Shown: positions 1,386 to 6,528 of the stretch, piece after piece
How the letters are laid out: each line of letters begins with the position of its first letter
How positions within the stretch are numbered: the first letter of the stretch is position 1
Virus record (IMG/VR): IMGVR_UViG_2698536454_000001
Location: 1 to 24,586 of that record
DNA: 24,586 nucleotides
Reading direction: 5' to 3' (one strand)
DNA from: a virus
Lineage: Duplodnaviria > Heunggongvirae > Uroviricota > Caudoviricetes
Position numbers and translations under genes: made by a program
Notes under the pieces: model-generated
What the model was told of the DNA's origin: nothing
The model's input: the letters and a program-made list of their open reading frames with translations, nothing else
Database searches by the model: none

Positions 1386-1991
1386 ATGGTGGTTATGATG
1401 CCTGCTGAACCTAAAACCTATAAACGAAAATCAACGCAATTTAAGCCGCTCACAGCAATGCAGGAGGCTTATTGCCAGTCATACATCAAAACGCCTGAAA
1501 ACCAGACTCAGGCAGCGATTAATGCAGGATTCTCCCCAAATACAGCGGCAGTTAAAGCCAGTGTCATGATGCGCGATGAACGCATTCAAAAACGCATTGC
1601 CGAGTTGATGGAGGAGCGCAACAAACGAATGCGCGTCAGTGCTGATTACGTTCTCATGCGCCTGGTGGAGATCGACCAGATGGACGTGATAGACATCCTC
1701 AACGACGATGGGAGCCTTAAACCAATCCGTGAGTGGCCGAAAATCTGGCGCACTACGCTTAGTGGCTTTGATCTGTCATCGACCATCATGAACATGAACG
1801 AGGATTCGATAGAGACAATCCTCAAAAAAATTAAATGGCCTGACAAGGTGAAGAACCTCGAACTGATTGGTAAGCACGTCGACGTCAACGCATTCAAAGA
1901 ACGCCTGGATGTTAATGTGAATGTGACAATTGCTGATCGTATAGCGGCAGCCAGGAAGAGACTGAAAGAACGTCAGGATGGCAATCAGTGA
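1386..1991 (+). CDS. terminase small subunit
   Basis: Track ORF 1317..1991. Sits directly upstream of and overlapping (GTGA) the large terminase. N-terminal region (QAAINAGFSPNTAAVKASVMM) looks like the HTH-type DNA-binding part of Terminase_2/P27-like small subunits. Start uncertain among ATG 1386, 1395, 1398. Confidence 0.7.
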   Translation: MVVMMPAEPKTYKRKSTQFKPLTAMQEAYCQSYIKTPENQTQAAINAGFSPNTAAVKASVMMRDERIQKRIAELMEERNKRMRVSADYVLMRLVEIDQMDVIDILNDDGSLKPIREWPKIWRTTLSGFDLSSTIMNMNEDSIETILKKIKWPDKVKNLELIGKHVDVNAFKERLDVNVNVTIADRIAAARKRLKERQDGNQ

Positions 1992-3463
1992 CAGATACAG
2001 CGTTATCTCCTGAAGAGCAGTTAATCGAGGATATTGCAGGGTTCACTCACGATCCGCTTGGCTATGCCCTCTATGCGTTCCCGTGGGGGGAAGAGGGGAC
2101 TGAACTGGCACATGCTACCGGCCCACGTCAGTGGCAGGCTGATGCGTTCCGAGAGATACGTGATCACCTGCAGAATCCGGAGACGCGCTATCAGCCGCTT
2201 ATGCTGTCACGCGCTTCTGGTCACGGTATTGGTAAATCCGCATTTATCTCAATGCTGATCAACTGGGGCATGTCCACTTGCGAGGATTGTAAGGTCGTGG
2301 TGACCGCCAACACCGACAACCAGCTACGAACGAAGACCTGGCCGGAAATTATCAAGTGGTCGAACCTTGCTATCACGAAAGACTGGTTTACCTGTACCGC
2401 TACCGCGATGTACAGCAATGACCCTGGGCACGACAAGCGGTGGCGAGCTGACGCAATCCCCTGGTCTGAGCACAACACTGAGGCATTCGCCGGACTACAC
2501 AACGAGCGCAAACGCATCATCGTGGTATTCGATGAAGCGTCGAACATTGCGGATCTGGTGTGGGAAGTTGCTGAGGGTGCGCTTACGGACGAAGACACTG
2601 AGATTATCTGGGTGGCGTTCGGAAACCCTACACGTAACACCGGACGTTTCCGCGAATGTTTCCGCAAATATAAACACCGCTGGAAAACTGCGCAGATTGA
2701 CAGCCGAACGGTGGAAGGCACCAACAAACAGCAGTTGCAGAAATGGGTTGATGACTACGGGGAAGACAGCGACTTCGTTAAAATCCGTGTGCGCGGCATA
2801 TTCCCGGATGCATCTGAATTGCAGTTTATCCCTACCGGTCTTACTGATGAGGCAATGAAACGGGTGGTAACCGCTGCGCAGGTTGCACATGCTCCTGTGA
2901 TAATCGGCGTTGACCCGGCATACTCCGGCGTTGATGACGCTGTGATATACCTGCGGCAGGGTCTGCACAGTAAGGTGCTGTGGACTGGCAACAAGACCAC
3001 TGACGATCTGATAATGGCGAAGCGTATCGCTGACTTTGAAGACCAGTACCAGGCTGACGCGGTGTTCATCGACTTCGGTTACGGAACCGGTCTGAAGTCA
3101 ATCGGTGACGGTTGGGGGCGCACATGGCAACTTGTTCCGTTCGGTGGCGCGTCTACTGACCCGCAGATGCTCAACAAGCGCGGGGAGATGTTCAACTCAT
3201 GCAAGACATGGCTGAGGTTGGGCGGGATGCTGGATGACCAGGAGACAGCGGACGATCTGTCGGCGGCAGAGTACAAAGTTCGCGTGGACGGTAAAATCGT
3301 TATCGAACCGAAGGAAGATATCAAGGAGCGGCTTGGGCGTTCGCCGGGTAAAGGCGATGCGCTACTGCTGACGTTTGCGTTCCCTGTGTCGAAGCGTCTG
3401 CGAATTCCCGGGCAGCAGAACCAGCAAGGCAAGGCCATCACAGATTACGATCCCTATGCTTAA
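1988..3463 (+). CDS. terminase large subunit
   Basis: 491 aa. Walker A-like SRASGHGIGKSAF, Walker B-like IIVVFDEASNI, C-terminal acidic nuclease-type motif VIIGVDPAYSGVDDAVI. GTG start coupled to the small-subunit stop. Confidence 0.85.
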   Translation: MTDTALSPEEQLIEDIAGFTHDPLGYALYAFPWGEEGTELAHATGPRQWQADAFREIRDHLQNPETRYQPLMLSRASGHGIGKSAFISMLINWGMSTCEDCKVVVTANTDNQLRTKTWPEIIKWSNLAITKDWFTCTATAMYSNDPGHDKRWRADAIPWSEHNTEAFAGLHNERKRIIVVFDEASNIADLVWEVAEGALTDEDTEIIWVAFGNPTRNTGRFRECFRKYKHRWKTAQIDSRTVEGTNKQQLQKWVDDYGEDSDFVKIRVRGIFPDASELQFIPTGLTDEAMKRVVTAAQVAHAPVIIGVDPAYSGVDDAVIYLRQGLHSKVLWTGNKTTDDLIMAKRIADFEDQYQADAVFIDFGYGTGLKSIGDGWGRTWQLVPFGGASTDPQMLNKRGEMFNSCKTWLRLGGMLDDQETADDLSAAEYKVRVDGKIVIEPKEDIKERLGRSPGKGDALLLTFAFPVSKRLRIPGQQNQQGKAITDYDPYA

Positions 3464-3514
3464 TCCGCTGGTGGGGATAATGCTGCTGATATCCTCTGGT
3501 GAGGATAAAACAAA

Positions 3515-3537
3515 GCCAGCCCATGAGCTGGCTGTTT
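3515..3537. terminator. bidirectional intrinsic terminator between convergent genes
   Basis: GCCAGC-ccatga-GCTGGC hairpin with TGTTTG on the + side and an A-rich run (UUUGUUUUAU on the - strand) on the other. Confidence 0.65.
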
Positions 3538-3549
3538 GTGACATGTCAC
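3538..3549. repeat. palindrome GTGACATGTCAC, copy 2 (between the bidirectional terminator and the stop of 3554..3925)
   Basis: Perfect 12-bp palindrome, then GGTGTTAT. Confidence 0.9.
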
Positions 3550-3553
3550 GGTG

Positions 3554-3925
3554 TTATTGCTCGCTTAACTTCTGCTTCAGCAAGTAACCTTCAAGCATCC
3601 AGATTTTGTTTACGGCATTCTGCCGGGCAATCTTCCGACCAATTTCTGCATCAAAGTTTTCCTGGCTTGCACAGGCACTCTCTCCGGTGACGGTGAAGCC
3701 ATTGCGCAGCACCAGGACGCAGAACGTCAGCAGAGAAAGTGATTCGTGCGGCTGGTAGTTTACCTCTCCGCCAGTATGTTTCGCTTTTATGGCTTTGCCA
3801 AAGGCACCATCTTCTGCTGTGAAATATGCCTCCTGAGCAATAATGCCTTCGATATGGTCTGGCGTAACGCGCGGTGCCGTTTTGCCTTTCTCAACGATTT
3901 CTTTTTCGATTTGCTGGTCGTTCAT
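3554..3925 (-). CDS. conserved small phage protein (123 aa), possibly Gp49/Sf6 gp66-like
   Basis: ATG 3925 with AGGTGAG RBS. Family name is a weak recollection, not verified. Confidence 0.6.
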   Translation of the reverse strand: MNDQQIEKEIVEKGKTAPRVTPDHIEGIIAQEAYFTAEDGAFGKAIKAKHTGGEVNYQPHESLSLLTFCVLVLRNGFTVTGESACASQENFDAEIGRKIARQNAVNKIWMLEGYLLKQKLSEQ

Positions 3926-3936
3926 AATCTCACCTT

Positions 3937-3960
3937 AAAAAAATGCCCGGCGAACCGGGC
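3937..3960 (-). terminator. intrinsic terminator (minus strand) directly upstream of the 3554..3925 RBS
   Basis: GCCCGG-ttcg-CCGGGC hairpin followed on the minus strand by a run of seven U. Confidence 0.6.
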
Positions 3961-4123
3961 GAACTGGAAGCAATGAGTTATGCCTTCCGTGGCTGTACGG
4001 GTTTACAGCATGAAGTCATCGCAATGGCGTCCTGCTGTAAAAAGGGCGGTGATAGTCCTTCAAGGGAAACCATCACCGCCAAGCACCTGGAACTTCTGGC
4101 ATCACGGTCCTTAGGCGTGATTC

Positions 4124-4200
4124 TGGCGTGGCATGCAGGATTCGAACCTGCGACCAACCGCTTAGAAGGCGGTTGGTCTGTCCGACTGAGCTAATGCCAC
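4124..4200 (-). tRNA. tRNA-Arg (anticodon UCU), argU-like, with one C-C mismatch in the D-stem
   Basis: Reverse complement folds as a 77-nt cloverleaf: 7-bp acceptor stem GTGGCAT/ATGCCAC, anticodon stem ACCGC/GCGGT with loop CTTCTAA, T-arm GCAGG-TTCGAAT-CCTGC, encoded G-CCA 3' end. D-stem GCTC/GACC has one mismatch. Confidence 0.85.
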
Positions 4201-4627
4201 AACGCTGAGAGCACTTAGCCTGTTAAGGCACCACACTTTGTCGCGGCTCCATAAATGCTCTCATCGTTGTACCCTCGTCTCTTCCGAGGCGTCACACCGA
4301 ATCGCCGGGATGGTGAATCCCCGTGCGCGGAATAAAACCGCTCGACTTGCACATTCCGGCTACCTGGTTCGTTTGCCCGAGCAAGGGAGGGTGCCCCTTA
4401 AACGTATCCAGACCGCTATCGGCGCATGTGCCATACGCCGTACTGCTCAAAATAAAAGCTCACTCCACCTGTTCAATTTAACGACAAGCCAGTCAGGTTA
4501 GTAACCGGAATGAGCTCTTTGGTTACCTGAAAGGTAATAATTTGTGCGTTAAATGTCAACTATCTACGATAAATAAATCATATGTGGTTAAATTGGTAAT
4601 AATTTAATTGCGTACGGAGTCATTGAT

Positions 4628-4834
4628 ATGTGCATGGGTAGCTCACCATCAGTGCCTGCAACACCAGAAGTTCAGGCAGCACCACAGGAGCAGGATGCCG
4701 CCGTTGTTGATGCCCGCGACGAAGAAACACGTCGCCGTCGCGCTGCTGCTGGTCGTAGTTCTACGCTGCTTACCGGTTCTCAGGGCGACACATCAACCGC
4801 TAATACCAGCGGTAAAACGCTGCTTGGTCAGTAA
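4628..4834 (+). CDS. small Ala/Arg-rich protein (68 aa), first gene of the morphogenesis operon
   Basis: ATG 4628 follows GGAG; its initiation region CGGAGTCATTGA is duplicated before the portal start. Low-complexity sequence. Confidence 0.45.
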   Translation: MCMGSSPSVPATPEVQAAPQEQDAAVVDARDEETRRRRAAAGRSSTLLTGSQGDTSTANTSGKTLLGQ

Positions 4835-4848
4835 CCGGAGTCATTGAA

Positions 4849-6528
4849 ATGGCGGAAACAACTAAAGAGCGATTGAACAAACAGTTCGCACAACTTGAAA
4901 GCGAGCGTCAGTCGTTCGAGCCGCACTGGCGCGAGTTGAGTGATTACATCAACCCACGTGGTTCCCGCTTTCTGACTTCTGAGGTCAACCGTAACGATCG
5001 ACGCAATACACGCATTATTGATTCGACCGGGACTATGGCGGCGCGCACTCTCGCCAGCGGCATGATGTCAGGCATCACAAGCCCCGCGCGTCCGTGGTTT
5101 CGCCTGGCTACGCCAGATCCTGAAATGATGGATTATGGCCCTGTTAAGTTGTGGCTTGAGGCGGTGCAGAACCGCATGAACGATATGTTCAATAAGTCGA
5201 ATCTCTATCAGTCGCTGCCGCAGTTATACGGAAGCCTCGGCACATACAGCACTGGTGCAATGGCGGTGCTGGAGGATGACGAGGACATCATTCGCACAAT
5301 GCCATTCCCGATAGGCAGTTACTACTTGGCTAACTCACCTCGTGGCAGTGTGGACACCTGTTTTCGCAAGTTCTCTATGACTGTTCGTCAGCTTGTTCAG
5401 GAATTCGGACTAAATAACGTCAGCGAATCCGTAAAAAGCATGTGGGAAAGCGGCACCTACGAGAAGTGGATTGACGTGATGCATTCGGTTTACCCGAACA
5501 TTGACCGCGATACATCGAAGCTGGATAGCAAGAACAAGCCATTCAAATCGGTTTATTACGAGGTTGGTGGCGATAACGACAAGTTGTTGCGTGAGTCCGG
5601 ATTCGATGAGTTTCCAATTATGGCTCCGCGCTGGGAAGTTAACGGCGAAGATGTTTATGGATCATCATGCCCGGGTATGCTGGCGCTTGGACCTGTTAAG
5701 GCATTGCAGCTTCTCCAGAAGCGCAAGTCGCAGTTGATTGATAAAGCCACCAATCCGCCGATGGTTGCTCCGACTTCCCTCAAGAATCAGCGTGCCTCCC
5801 TTCTTCCTGGCGACATCACGTATATCGATCAGATTACTGGTCAGGATGGTTTCAGGCCTGCTTATCTGGTTAACCCTAGTACAGCAGATCTGGTGGCAGA
5901 CATTCAGGACACTCGCCAAATCATTAACAGCGCCTACTTTGTCGATCTGTTCATGATGTTGCAGAACATCAATACCCGCTCGATGCCTGTTGAAGCAGTG
6001 ATCGAAATGAAAGAAGAAAAACTTCTGATGTTGGGGCCGGTTCTGGAGCGTCTGAACGACGAATGTCTTAATCCTCTCATTGACCGCGCTTTCTCGATGA
6101 TGGTGCGTAAAAACATGCTGCCGCCACCGCCTGACGCGATGGAGGGTATGCCCCTGAAGGTCGAATACATTTCCGTCATGGCTCAGGCGCAGAAGTCTAT
6201 CGGCCTGTCCAGTCTGGCGTCTACGGTCAACTTCATTGGTCAACTTGCGCAAGCGAAACCAGAAGCTCTCGACAAACTCAACGTTGATCAGGCGATCGAT
6301 GCATTCGCTGATATGTCCGGAGTGTCTCCAACCGTCATTGTTCCGCAGGAACAGGTTGAGCAGGCTCGCCAGCAACGGGCACAGCAGCAACAGCAGCAAC
6401 AAATGATGGCGATGGGGATGGCGGCGGCACAGGGTGCCAAGACGCTAAGCGAAGCTAAAACTTCGGATCCGAGTGTTTTGTCAGCTATGGCGAATGCAGT
6501 TAGTGGTCAGGGTGGGCAATCACAATGA
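4849..6528 (+). CDS. portal (head-to-tail connector) protein, T7 gp8-like
   Basis: 559 aa. Gln-rich C-terminal tail (QQRAQQQQQQQMMAMGMAAAQGA...) and overall layout recall T7 gp8; followed by scaffold and capsid genes. Confidence 0.8.
   Translation: MAETTKERLNKQFAQLESERQSFEPHWRELSDYINPRGSRFLTSEVNRNDRRNTRIIDSTGTMAARTLASGMMSGITSPARPWFRLATPDPEMMDYGPVKLWLEAVQNRMNDMFNKSNLYQSLPQLYGSLGTYSTGAMAVLEDDEDIIRTMPFPIGSYYLANSPRGSVDTCFRKFSMTVRQLVQEFGLNNVSESVKSMWESGTYEKWIDVMHSVYPNIDRDTSKLDSKNKPFKSVYYEVGGDNDKLLRESGFDEFPIMAPRWEVNGEDVYGSSCPGMLALGPVKALQLLQKRKSQLIDKATNPPMVAPTSLKNQRASLLPGDITYIDQITGQDGFRPAYLVNPSTADLVADIQDTRQIINSAYFVDLFMMLQNINTRSMPVEAVIEMKEEKLLMLGPVLERLNDECLNPLIDRAFSMMVRKNMLPPPPDAMEGMPLKVEYISVMAQAQKSIGLSSLASTVNFIGQLAQAKPEALDKLNVDQAIDAFADMSGVSPTVIVPQEQVEQARQQRAQQQQQQQMMAMGMAAAQGAKTLSEAKTSDPSVLSAMANAVSGQGGQSQ

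Follow-up and report, generated by a model that had tools for sequence, protein, structure and literature searches.

The stable RNAs C and D of bacteriophage T4 (species 1 and 2) are small, are co-transcribed with a tRNA cluster and are matured by the tRNA-processing enzymes. The eps-associated RNA (EAR) of the Bacillales is a structured, cis-acting operon RNA which promotes processive antitermination. Here we describe an RNA element found in the gap at positions 4201-4627 of a 24,586-nucleotide stretch of phage DNA (positions 1 to 24,586 of the IMG/VR record IMGVR_UViG_2698536454_000001, class Caudoviricetes; the whole stretch is referred to below as the window), where it directly abuts the gene for a tRNA-Arg with the anticodon UCU and is co-oriented with it. 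The element defines a new family among the structured phage RNAs that are linked to tRNAs or to early leaders. T4 is a lytic myovirus whose RNAs C and D, unlike the RNA of the window, are not linked to repressor-controlled promoters, and the two are likened here by description only. EAR belongs to another phylum and is chromosomal rather than phage-borne, and the window RNA has no match in Rfam.

The put RNAs of the lambdoid phages HK022 and HK639 offer a comparison by position. In the accounts that we draw on, put RNA is described as acting without phage proteins and as remaining bound to RNA polymerase, with an activity that is independent of tethering through the nascent transcript. The likeness is that of a structured RNA just past the early promoter pL of lambdoid phages that have no N gene in their records, and in relatives the element is placed as lambda nutL or HK022 putL are, 7-125 nt past repressor-controlled early promoters. 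The put RNA is of about 70 nt and has two stem-loops, whereas the window RNA has a pseudoknotted 5' domain of about 175 nt followed by a variable stem, and its family occurs once per phage, is also found in podoviruses and P1, often lies beside a tRNA and has a putative antitermination role. The identification of the element as put RNA was rejected, the covariance model (CM) of the family having no match at the HK022 and HK639 put sites and the annotated putL sequence of HK639 being unrelated.

The ROOL and GOLLD RNAs offer a comparison by context, being described as encoded by phages or prophages, as containing multiple pseudoknots and as lying near tRNAs, which are sometimes found in a variable linker of the RNA. 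They are 580 to >800 nt long and come mostly from Firmicutes, Actinobacteria and metagenomes, whereas the window RNA is of about 245 nt (480-580 nt for the whole unit) and its family, found in phages of the Enterobacterales and in one Stenotrophomonas phage, is tied to early promoters, unlike ROOL and GOLLD. The element is not a ROOL or GOLLD RNA, as it has no Rfam match and is shorter than 500 nt, and the resemblance is one of context only. Ribosomal RNA (rrn) operons resemble the locus in that both are units of untranslated RNA and tRNA, and three members of the family further recall the boxA-containing sites of the Nus factors, such as the rrn leader (boxB-boxA-boxC) or lambda nut, in having a perfect boxA, preceded by a small hairpin, right after the 5' domain.

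A structured RNA encoded on the minus strand

The GC-rich half of the gap, at 4199-4442, almost certainly encodes a functional structured RNA of about 245 nt on the minus strand. Single-sequence folding z-scores are only modest (-2.35, and modest on both strands), a point on the other side; it is the comparative evidence that bears the argument. Five helices were drawn by eye (P1, the base of P2, P4, P5 and a pseudoknot made by the P4 loop; 26 pairs in all) and tested on a MAFFT alignment of 28 diverse members, from which the CM was built. In this alignment 95.2% of the cells are paired and 12 of the 26 pairs show compensatory changes; the corresponding values for a CM-fitted alignment of 75 distinct sequences are 96.6% and 13 of the 26. 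None of 500 shuffled controls attains the observed values, and pairing drops to 26-52% when the 3' partners are slid along the sequence. Among the 75 distinct sequences a pseudoknot pair is C-G in 51 and A-U in 16, which is a compensatory exchange. The strand is indicated by the G-U pairs, with 96.6% paired in the minus-strand sense versus 88.6% on the complement, and one pair is U-G in 72 of the 75 sequences. A tRNA gene is found nearby in 47 of 130 loci, and in all 47 it lies on the same strand as the element, either as tRNA-Arg(UCU) starting right 3' of it or as tRNA-Ile2(CAU) ending just 5' of it; the remaining loci, about two thirds (83/130), have no tRNA nearby.

The first-pass annotation of this DNA had considered the gap non-coding and its one long open reading frame (ORF) not credible, and both judgements are upheld. 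The ORF at 4238..4501 (plus strand, 87 amino acids, TTG start) runs antisense to the conserved RNA; the next credible gene begins at the ATG at 4628, and the equivalent stretch carries no annotated coding sequence (CDS) in phiV10, TL-2011b, SPN9TCW and one Klebsiella relative. Reading frames were found not to be conserved across the family: the best of the six frames, fixed to an invariant core of the element, is open in 16 of 43 representatives, two variable segments occur in every length modulo 3, and sequence variation tracks helices and not codons. The ORF 4238..4501 and the 'hypothetical proteins' that some records annotate over the element are artefacts.

It had also been suggested that the gap could contain a small RNA, and that a covariance search and a comparison with the equivalent region of related phages would be informative. 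A permissive cmscan of 3400-5200 against Rfam 15 (E up to 10) matches only the tRNA, yet a conserved, covarying structure is present, and the comparison with relatives brings out a conserved RNA, candidate promoter and operator. When ten loci of the family were scanned with Rfam (E up to 1), nothing was found over the element except one hammerhead in a variable tip. The element is also undescribed in the full-text literature searched, which took in work on Pas sRNAs, genome-language-model mining, the P1 transcriptome, ROOL and GOLLD, put structure and Nus targets and largely leaves aside subscription journals, for example work on the nut regions of Shiga-toxin (Stx) phages.

Architecture of the RNA

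The 5' domain (4267..4442, minus strand, about 175 nt) consists of five helices, one of which is a pseudoknot, and is the sole match of the CM in the window (148.7 bits, E 1e-46). Along the minus strand it begins with the P1 hairpin (4420-4440) and an AGCGGUC segment (4411-4417), followed by the variable, branched arm P2 (4364-4411) and by the invariant 19-nt core GGUAGCCGGAAUGUGCAAG (GGTAGCCGGAATGTGCAAG) at 4346-4364. The variable P3 (4323-4345) comes next, then P4 (4307-4322), whose loop CACC (4312-4315) forms the pseudoknot with GGUG (4295-4298), and finally P5 (4273-4289) with the loop GAAGAGA. RNAalifold favours an alternative pairing, between the invariant P1 loop GGCACAU and AUGUGC of the invariant core, and this modelled pairing may stand for a further pseudoknot or for another conformation of the RNA; because both sides are invariant, covariation neither supports nor excludes it.

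The 5' domain leads into a long stem, P6 (4199..4270, minus strand), which has arms at 4253-4270 and 4199-4216 and a hypervariable tip of 36 nt at 4217-4252. This stem is real. Its arms are a 19-nt inverted repeat with 89% complementarity, at least nine arm variants retain complementarity, and the duplex median is -24.95 versus -16.85 kcal/mol for shuffled arms. The final pair of P6 includes G4200, which is nucleotide 1 of the tRNA, so that cleavage by RNase P would free the RNA at the foot of P6. The tip is 29-192 nt long in relatives, and the window and locus L035 (loci of the family are given as L numbers) have the same 5' domains and tRNAs with unrelated P6 tips.

Some tips contain recognisable elements. 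Hairpins like tRNA T-arms lie inside the variable tips of SPN9TCW, L100 and L104; in the SPN1S-type phages, as seen in SPN9TCW (L003, ~1795-1890), the tip is about 110 nt long and its hairpins GGTTCAATTCC and GTTCGATTC look like remnants of tRNA genes. The P6 tip of L062 contains a hammerhead ribozyme (L062:384-430, plus strand; Rfam Hammerhead_1, 28.7 bits, E 0.0045, just below the gathering score) with the canonical core CUGAAGAG ... CGAAAC ... GUC.

Distribution of the family

A sensitive BLAST search with the gap alone found 4201-4441, and chiefly 4254-4441, to be about 80% identical to unannotated DNA of unrelated phages. These include the lambdoid phages cdtI, mEp460 and 2H10 and Stx2c- and Stx2a-converting phages, as well as P1, P7, D6 and SJ46, the Klebsiella phage SopranoGao and one Stenotrophomonas phage. 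In all contexts inspected the neighbouring genes run in the direction equivalent to the minus strand of the window, and its neighbours in P1 are trnI on one side and ban on the other. The 19-nt core was identical in the first eight examples (8/8). A search with this core drew 102 distinct variants of the element from more than 120 IMG/VR contigs, and a search with the CM found 101 copies in 100 phage loci, at 110-171 bits. Locus L027 has two same-strand copies about 800 nt apart (L027:3994-4154 and L027:4801-4959, both minus strand), the second of which is degenerate, with the core GGAAGCTGGAATGTGCAAG and a score of 121 bits.

A looser pattern, in which seven core bases were fixed, identified 24 true copies in Enterobacterales species genomes, and in 23 of these the remaining 12 core bases are identical. 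Of 5426 complete Escherichia coli genomes, 1840 carry the element, at 1920 chromosomal and 554 plasmid places, and RefSeq annotates only the tRNA at these loci. Matches to the pattern in wider taxa (Dokdonella, Rhodanobacteraceae, Streptomyces and others) turned out to be a coding gene or chance and not the RNA.

Some loci also give matches to known RNA families. In the Stenotrophomonas phage (L010:2355-2474, minus strand) the P6 and terminator segment matches RprA below threshold (50 bits, against a gathering score of 70), a match for which the terminator is probably responsible. In cdtI-type prophages the rightward early region (L007:4776-4964 and L029:3354-3539, plus strand) contains isrK and C4-antisense RNA above the Rfam gathering scores, which points to an RNA immunity module like that of P4 or Gifsy in those phages.

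Candidate promoter, operator and leader position

A candidate leftward promoter lies upstream of the RNA at 4531..4559 on the minus strand, with a -35 hexamer TTGACA (4554-4559), a 17-nt spacer and a -10 hexamer TACCTT (4531-4536). The hexamers are kept in the window, in epsilon15, in SPN9TCW and, with one change, in the Klebsiella phage, while the spacer diverges. The -10 is overlapped by a palindromic operator, TTACC-N5-GGTAA (4523..4537), whose half-sites are invariant in the four phages and which the epsilon15 record labels 'repressor'. The conserved hexamers and the overlapping operator argue that the AT-rich half of the gap probably holds the leftward promoter of the RNA-tRNA unit, under the control of a repressor. 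The window RNA begins about 90 nt past this candidate promoter. Between the two lies a leader hairpin (4449..4519, minus strand; inverted repeat I4), with a folding energy of -25.3 kcal/mol and a z-score of -2.8, which corresponds to the 'RNaseIII' feature of the epsilon15 record. Its stem covaries with that of the Klebsiella phage, and two mismatches on the plus strand become G-U pairs on the minus strand. In this lineage the leader hairpin is followed by UUUUAUUUU (~4445-4453).

A comparable order is found in many phages of E. coli, Salmonella and Klebsiella. In cdtI the stop codon of cI is followed by an intrinsic terminator, the promoter TTGACA-16-CATAAT and, about 50 nt past the -10, the element. 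The spacer of this promoter holds a 17-bp palindrome that is found twice more between cI and cro, and the promoter is therefore oL/pL. In most other subfamilies, too, the upstream gene ends in a terminator, and a promoter TTGAC(A/C)-17-TAnnnT, often with a palindrome, stands 7-125 nt before P1; in several loci transcription is predicted to start at P1 itself. Of 119 loci, 22 have a best promoter score of at least 10 on the sense strand, and 1 has such a score on the antisense strand. The element lies just downstream of a gene for a cI-like repressor, on the same strand, in 57 of 130 loci. The idea that it is a lysogenic 'moron' co-transcribed with cI was rejected, because a terminator and an operator-bearing promoter separate cI from the element.

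The downstream unit and its variation

The tRNA-Arg(UCU) gene (4124-4200, minus strand; ARAGORN, Rfam tRNA 62.5 bits) lies immediately 3' of the structured RNA and is followed by a series of hairpins on the same strand. Just 3' of the tRNA is the hairpin AUCACG-N9-CGUGAU (4101..4121), which is kept in relatives, even in those in which the tRNA has been replaced. A terminator scan reports T1 (4039..4080), with a 14-bp stem, the loop UUCCCUUGAAGG and then CUUUUU, and T2 (3937..3960), a GC-rich hairpin with U7 that ends about 2 nt before the ribosome-binding site (RBS) of the next gene. A further hairpin at 4002-4041 is among the retained 3' modules. The next gene (3554..3925, minus strand) belongs to the Phage_gp49_66 family (PF13876, Pfam E 1.8e-34). 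No promoter was detected between T1 and T2 and there is no room for one after T2; the gene lies behind these two strong terminators, and transcription from the leftward promoter would have to read through both to express it. The T1 loop (UUCCCUUGAAGG) shares the motif CCCUUGAAG with the P2 tip of several relatives, for example L037, and CUUG(C) of the T1 loop and P2 tips could pair with the invariant (G)CAAG that ends the core, with no covariation seen.

The gene at the equivalent position in the Klebsiella phage (L004:1968-2489) is annotated as DUF2829, and the downstream ORF of the L112-type variant, which is P1-like, is Thoeris anti-defence 2-like (PF11195). We take PF11195, now named 'Tad2-like' in Pfam, to be the former DUF2829. 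The insert between terminase and portal genes may be an accessory or anti-defence island.

Several relatives of the epsilon15 type (L044, L059, L085 and L110, at about +150 to +300 nt after the core) have the tRNA-Arg swapped for unrelated sequence. Such inserts have a GUGGUG/CACCAC stem in the place of the acceptor stem and retain the 3' modules, and many start with a hairpin that has the conserved loop GGCUGA and a covarying stem. In epsilon15 itself (L005, 1433-1536) a deletion matching 4075-4405 of the window has removed the tRNA-Arg and most of the element, and the RNA-tRNA module is therefore accessory.

What the RNA may do

We tentatively favour a reading in which the 5' domain is a co-transcriptional leader that makes RNA polymerase resistant to termination. 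A transcript would start at the repressor-controlled leftward promoter (TTGACA, 4559-4554; TACCTT, 4536-4531; operator, 4523-4537) and would carry, in order, the leader hairpin, the RNA, the tRNA-Arg, a hairpin, T1, T2 and the gp49/66-family gene (3925-3554), with the 3' end of the RNA set by the RNase P cut at the 5' end of the tRNA. The 5' domain would act alone, in the manner of HK022 put, or with Nus factors through a segment of the boxA type, so that early transcription could pass the untranslated RNA and tRNA segment and T1 and T2 to reach the downstream gene; in lambdoid relatives the stretch to be crossed with its help would be the long early-left operon. Cleavage of the RNA by RNase P or by a ribozyme is compatible with antitermination, because put activity needs no tethering through the nascent transcript.

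Several observations are consistent with this proposal, among them the leader position and the placing of the gp49/66-family gene behind T1 and T2. No N gene is annotated or recognisable in the early-left operons of SfV-like phages, cdtI and mEp460, in the records inspected. A perfect match to the gamma-proteobacterial boxA consensus GYTCTTTAANA occurs on the sense strand, at +123 to +130 nt from the core, in L033, L046 and L089, when there are six perfect matches in total in the 1.2 Mb of loci, and the 3' arm of P6 contains GCUCU(U/C) in most members. These boxA sequences (GCTCTTTAA[C/T/A]A; for example L089:3363-3373) have a small hairpin before them, in an order like the boxB-boxA of the rrn leader. 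A nut site of the lambda type, with the 3' arm of P6 as boxA and the next hairpin as boxB, was considered and rejected, since no Arg-rich, N-like ORF lies downstream and the hairpin is not phage-specific: the GGCUGA-loop hairpin is common to unrelated phage types and therefore cannot be a phage-specific boxB.

A number of points weigh against an antitermination leader. The boxA-like segment of the window, GCUCUCAGCGU (GCTCTCAGCGT), lies in the 3' arm of P6, where it is base-paired, and it keeps C4 and 5 of 10 fixed positions; the P6 arms of the P1-like and Stenotrophomonas-type members are not boxA-like. Across the family, intrinsic terminators are no more frequent downstream of the element (21 of 40 loci) than in the antisense control (24 of 40), and in P1 the annotated promoters of the ban operon are about 2.3 kb away from the element. 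The -10 of the leftward promoter matches the consensus at only 3 of 6 positions, because of which the promoter falls below the scan threshold, and neither strand has a site in the promoter scan. In epsilon15 the remnant amounts to P1 and the start of P2 (~35 nt, 43 bits), and this phage is viable. The tRNA-like arms, the hammerhead and the strong terminators would suit a released, stable RNA at least equally well.

Almost as likely, and likewise short of an even chance, is a trans-acting, processed and stable early RNA, a smaller enterobacterial counterpart of ROOL and GOLLD or of the T4 stable RNAs, which would be freed from an early-promoter transcript by RNase P, cutting at the adjacent tRNA or at an arm that resembles one, by the hammerhead or through ending at a terminator, and would bind a conserved host component (the ribosome, RNA polymerase, an RNase, or a defence part or signal) for takeover or counter-defence. 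The invariable co-orientation of the adjacent tRNA (Arg(UCU) 3' or Ile2 5'), the T-arm-like hairpins in the tips of SPN9TCW, L100 and L104, the one hammerhead, the strong terminators that close the unit in epsilon15-like and Stenotrophomonas-type loci and the predicted start right at P1 in some loci are all what such an RNA would lead one to expect. Loops and junctions are very highly conserved in sequence, which suggests that they bind a conserved partner; genes of anti-defence type (gp49/66 and Tad2-like) lie next to the element; and ROOL and GOLLD, as described, share both the phage origin and the proximity to tRNA islands, some having tRNAs in the linker. No partner or target was found, however, with the antisense target search in the window at chance level, and the perfect boxA right after the domain in three loci and the regular position between an early promoter and a long operon are left unexplained. 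Use of the variable tip as an antisense guide was rejected, there being one 12-mer complement in the window versus ~0.7 expected by chance. A sensing leader similar to a riboswitch, in which a small molecule or a tRNA bound to the 5' domain would set readthrough into the early unit and so let the early programme respond to the physiology of the host, is much less probable. The complex, conserved and pseudoknotted domain does occupy a 5' leader position with variable structures after it, the pairing of the P1 loop GGCACAU with AUGUGC of the core makes a conformational switch conceivable, and the AGA in the P5 loop is the codon that tRNA-Arg(UCU) reads. The expression platform is inconsistent, however, as a tRNA, the long stem, a boxA or the ban start codon may come next; neither the window nor the ten family loci scanned has an Rfam riboswitch match, and the AGA loop is unchanged in P1-type members linked to tRNA-Ile.

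We regard the remaining explanations as improbable in the extreme. The first-pass annotation had taken the gap to hold the divergent promoters of the tRNA and the portal operon; an ordinary regulatory spacer of this kind, with a long leader to the tRNA and conservation due to recent common descent, would account for the promoter and operator signals and for the loss of most of the element from epsilon15, and is contradicted by the compensatory changes, the invariant 19-nt core, the spread over unrelated phage types and contexts and the 83 of 130 loci without a tRNA. No better placed is a site acting as DNA, such as a single-strand origin or a site of recombination or attachment, recognised in the form of a folded single strand. 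The stems do enclose hypervariable inserts, and elements that are identical in other respects (the window versus L035) have different ones, as in cassette exchange, but the element invariably runs in the direction of local transcription and of the tRNAs beside it and comes directly after promoters, the pseudoknot and strand-specific G-U pairs suit an RNA, and no linked recombinase was found. Least credible of all is a small protein gene on either strand, such as ORF 4238..4501: many loci do have an open frame on the antisense strand, which in some records is called a hypothetical protein (mEp460_037), but the explanation is contradicted by frames open in at most 16 of 43 representatives, by insertions and deletions of all lengths modulo 3 and by variation that follows the helices.

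The gap and its neighbours

The window is 98-99% identical over 3900-4900 (1 kb) to Escherichia phage phiV10 and its relatives, the epsilon15-like podoviruses of the genus Uetakevirus. The gap is placed between the packaging genes, with the large terminase at 1988-3463, and a small gene (4628-4834; ATG at 4628, GGAG RBS at 4616-4619) that precedes the portal gene (4849-6528). The described division into a GC-rich left and an AT-rich right half is borne out, with a GC content of 0.55-0.60 over 4200-4450 versus 0.32 over 4500-4650, and the inverted repeats reported in the gap were detected on inspection. The suggested small RNA is the structured RNA of about 245 nt at 4199-4442. As for the spacer with divergent promoters, control signals for the tRNA unit do lie in the gap, in the form of the conserved leftward hexamers, whereas the GC-rich half is a structured RNA and not promoter spacer, and a portal-operon promoter was not identified.

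The rightward promoter that had been suggested, TTGTGC (4542-4547) and TACGAT (4565-4570) with a 17-nt spacer on the plus strand, is in the sequence, but it matches the consensus at 7 of 12 positions, is not conserved and is not reported by the promoter scan. Relatives have CTGATG or TTTATC at the -35 position and TACGCT or TACGAC at the -10, and the TACGAC of the Klebsiella phage is without the key final T.

An AT-rich block at 4563..4627 (plus strand), which ends in the GGAG (4616-4619) before the ATG at 4628, is nearly invariant, with almost all columns identical across the window, epsilon15, SPN9TCW and the Klebsiella phage. Its first 50 nt or so (4563-4615, CTACGATAAATAAATCATATGTGGTTAAATTGGTAATAATTTAATTGCG) are nearly invariant from E. 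coli through Klebsiella phages, are more conserved than the adjoining coding sequence and hold another GGTAA half-site. A promoter of the portal operon, perhaps a non-sigma-70 one, or activator sites may lie within 4563-4627, where no sigma-70-like sequence was seen.

Implications

If confirmed, the element would be a new complex RNA family in classic phages (P1, lambdoid and Shiga-toxin phages, epsilon15 and phiV10), present in the first transcript made after infection or induction, and would provide a tractable E. coli model for the role of tRNA-linked structured phage RNAs such as ROOL and GOLLD. It would also place a control point upstream of genes of the anti-defence type and of the early operons of Stx prophages, and would correct the annotation of an element that is absent from Rfam and PGAP and is overlaid by spurious 'hypothetical protein' ORFs. 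The antitermination leader, if true, could explain how early operons are read through in those lambdoid phages that have no annotated N gene.

It is possible, though we would not put it higher, that the family is a new class of RNA which reprograms RNA polymerase, alone or with Nus factors, and thus a second put-like system, structurally unrelated to the first and far wider in its distribution, or else an RNA-only factor for counter-defence or host takeover that is released by tRNA-processing enzymes. As a put-like system it may be used by P1, by Shiga-toxin and SfV-like lambdoid phages and by epsilon15-like podoviruses. Either mechanism, if true, would mean that about one third of E. coli genomes contain a functional RNA that has so far gone undescribed.

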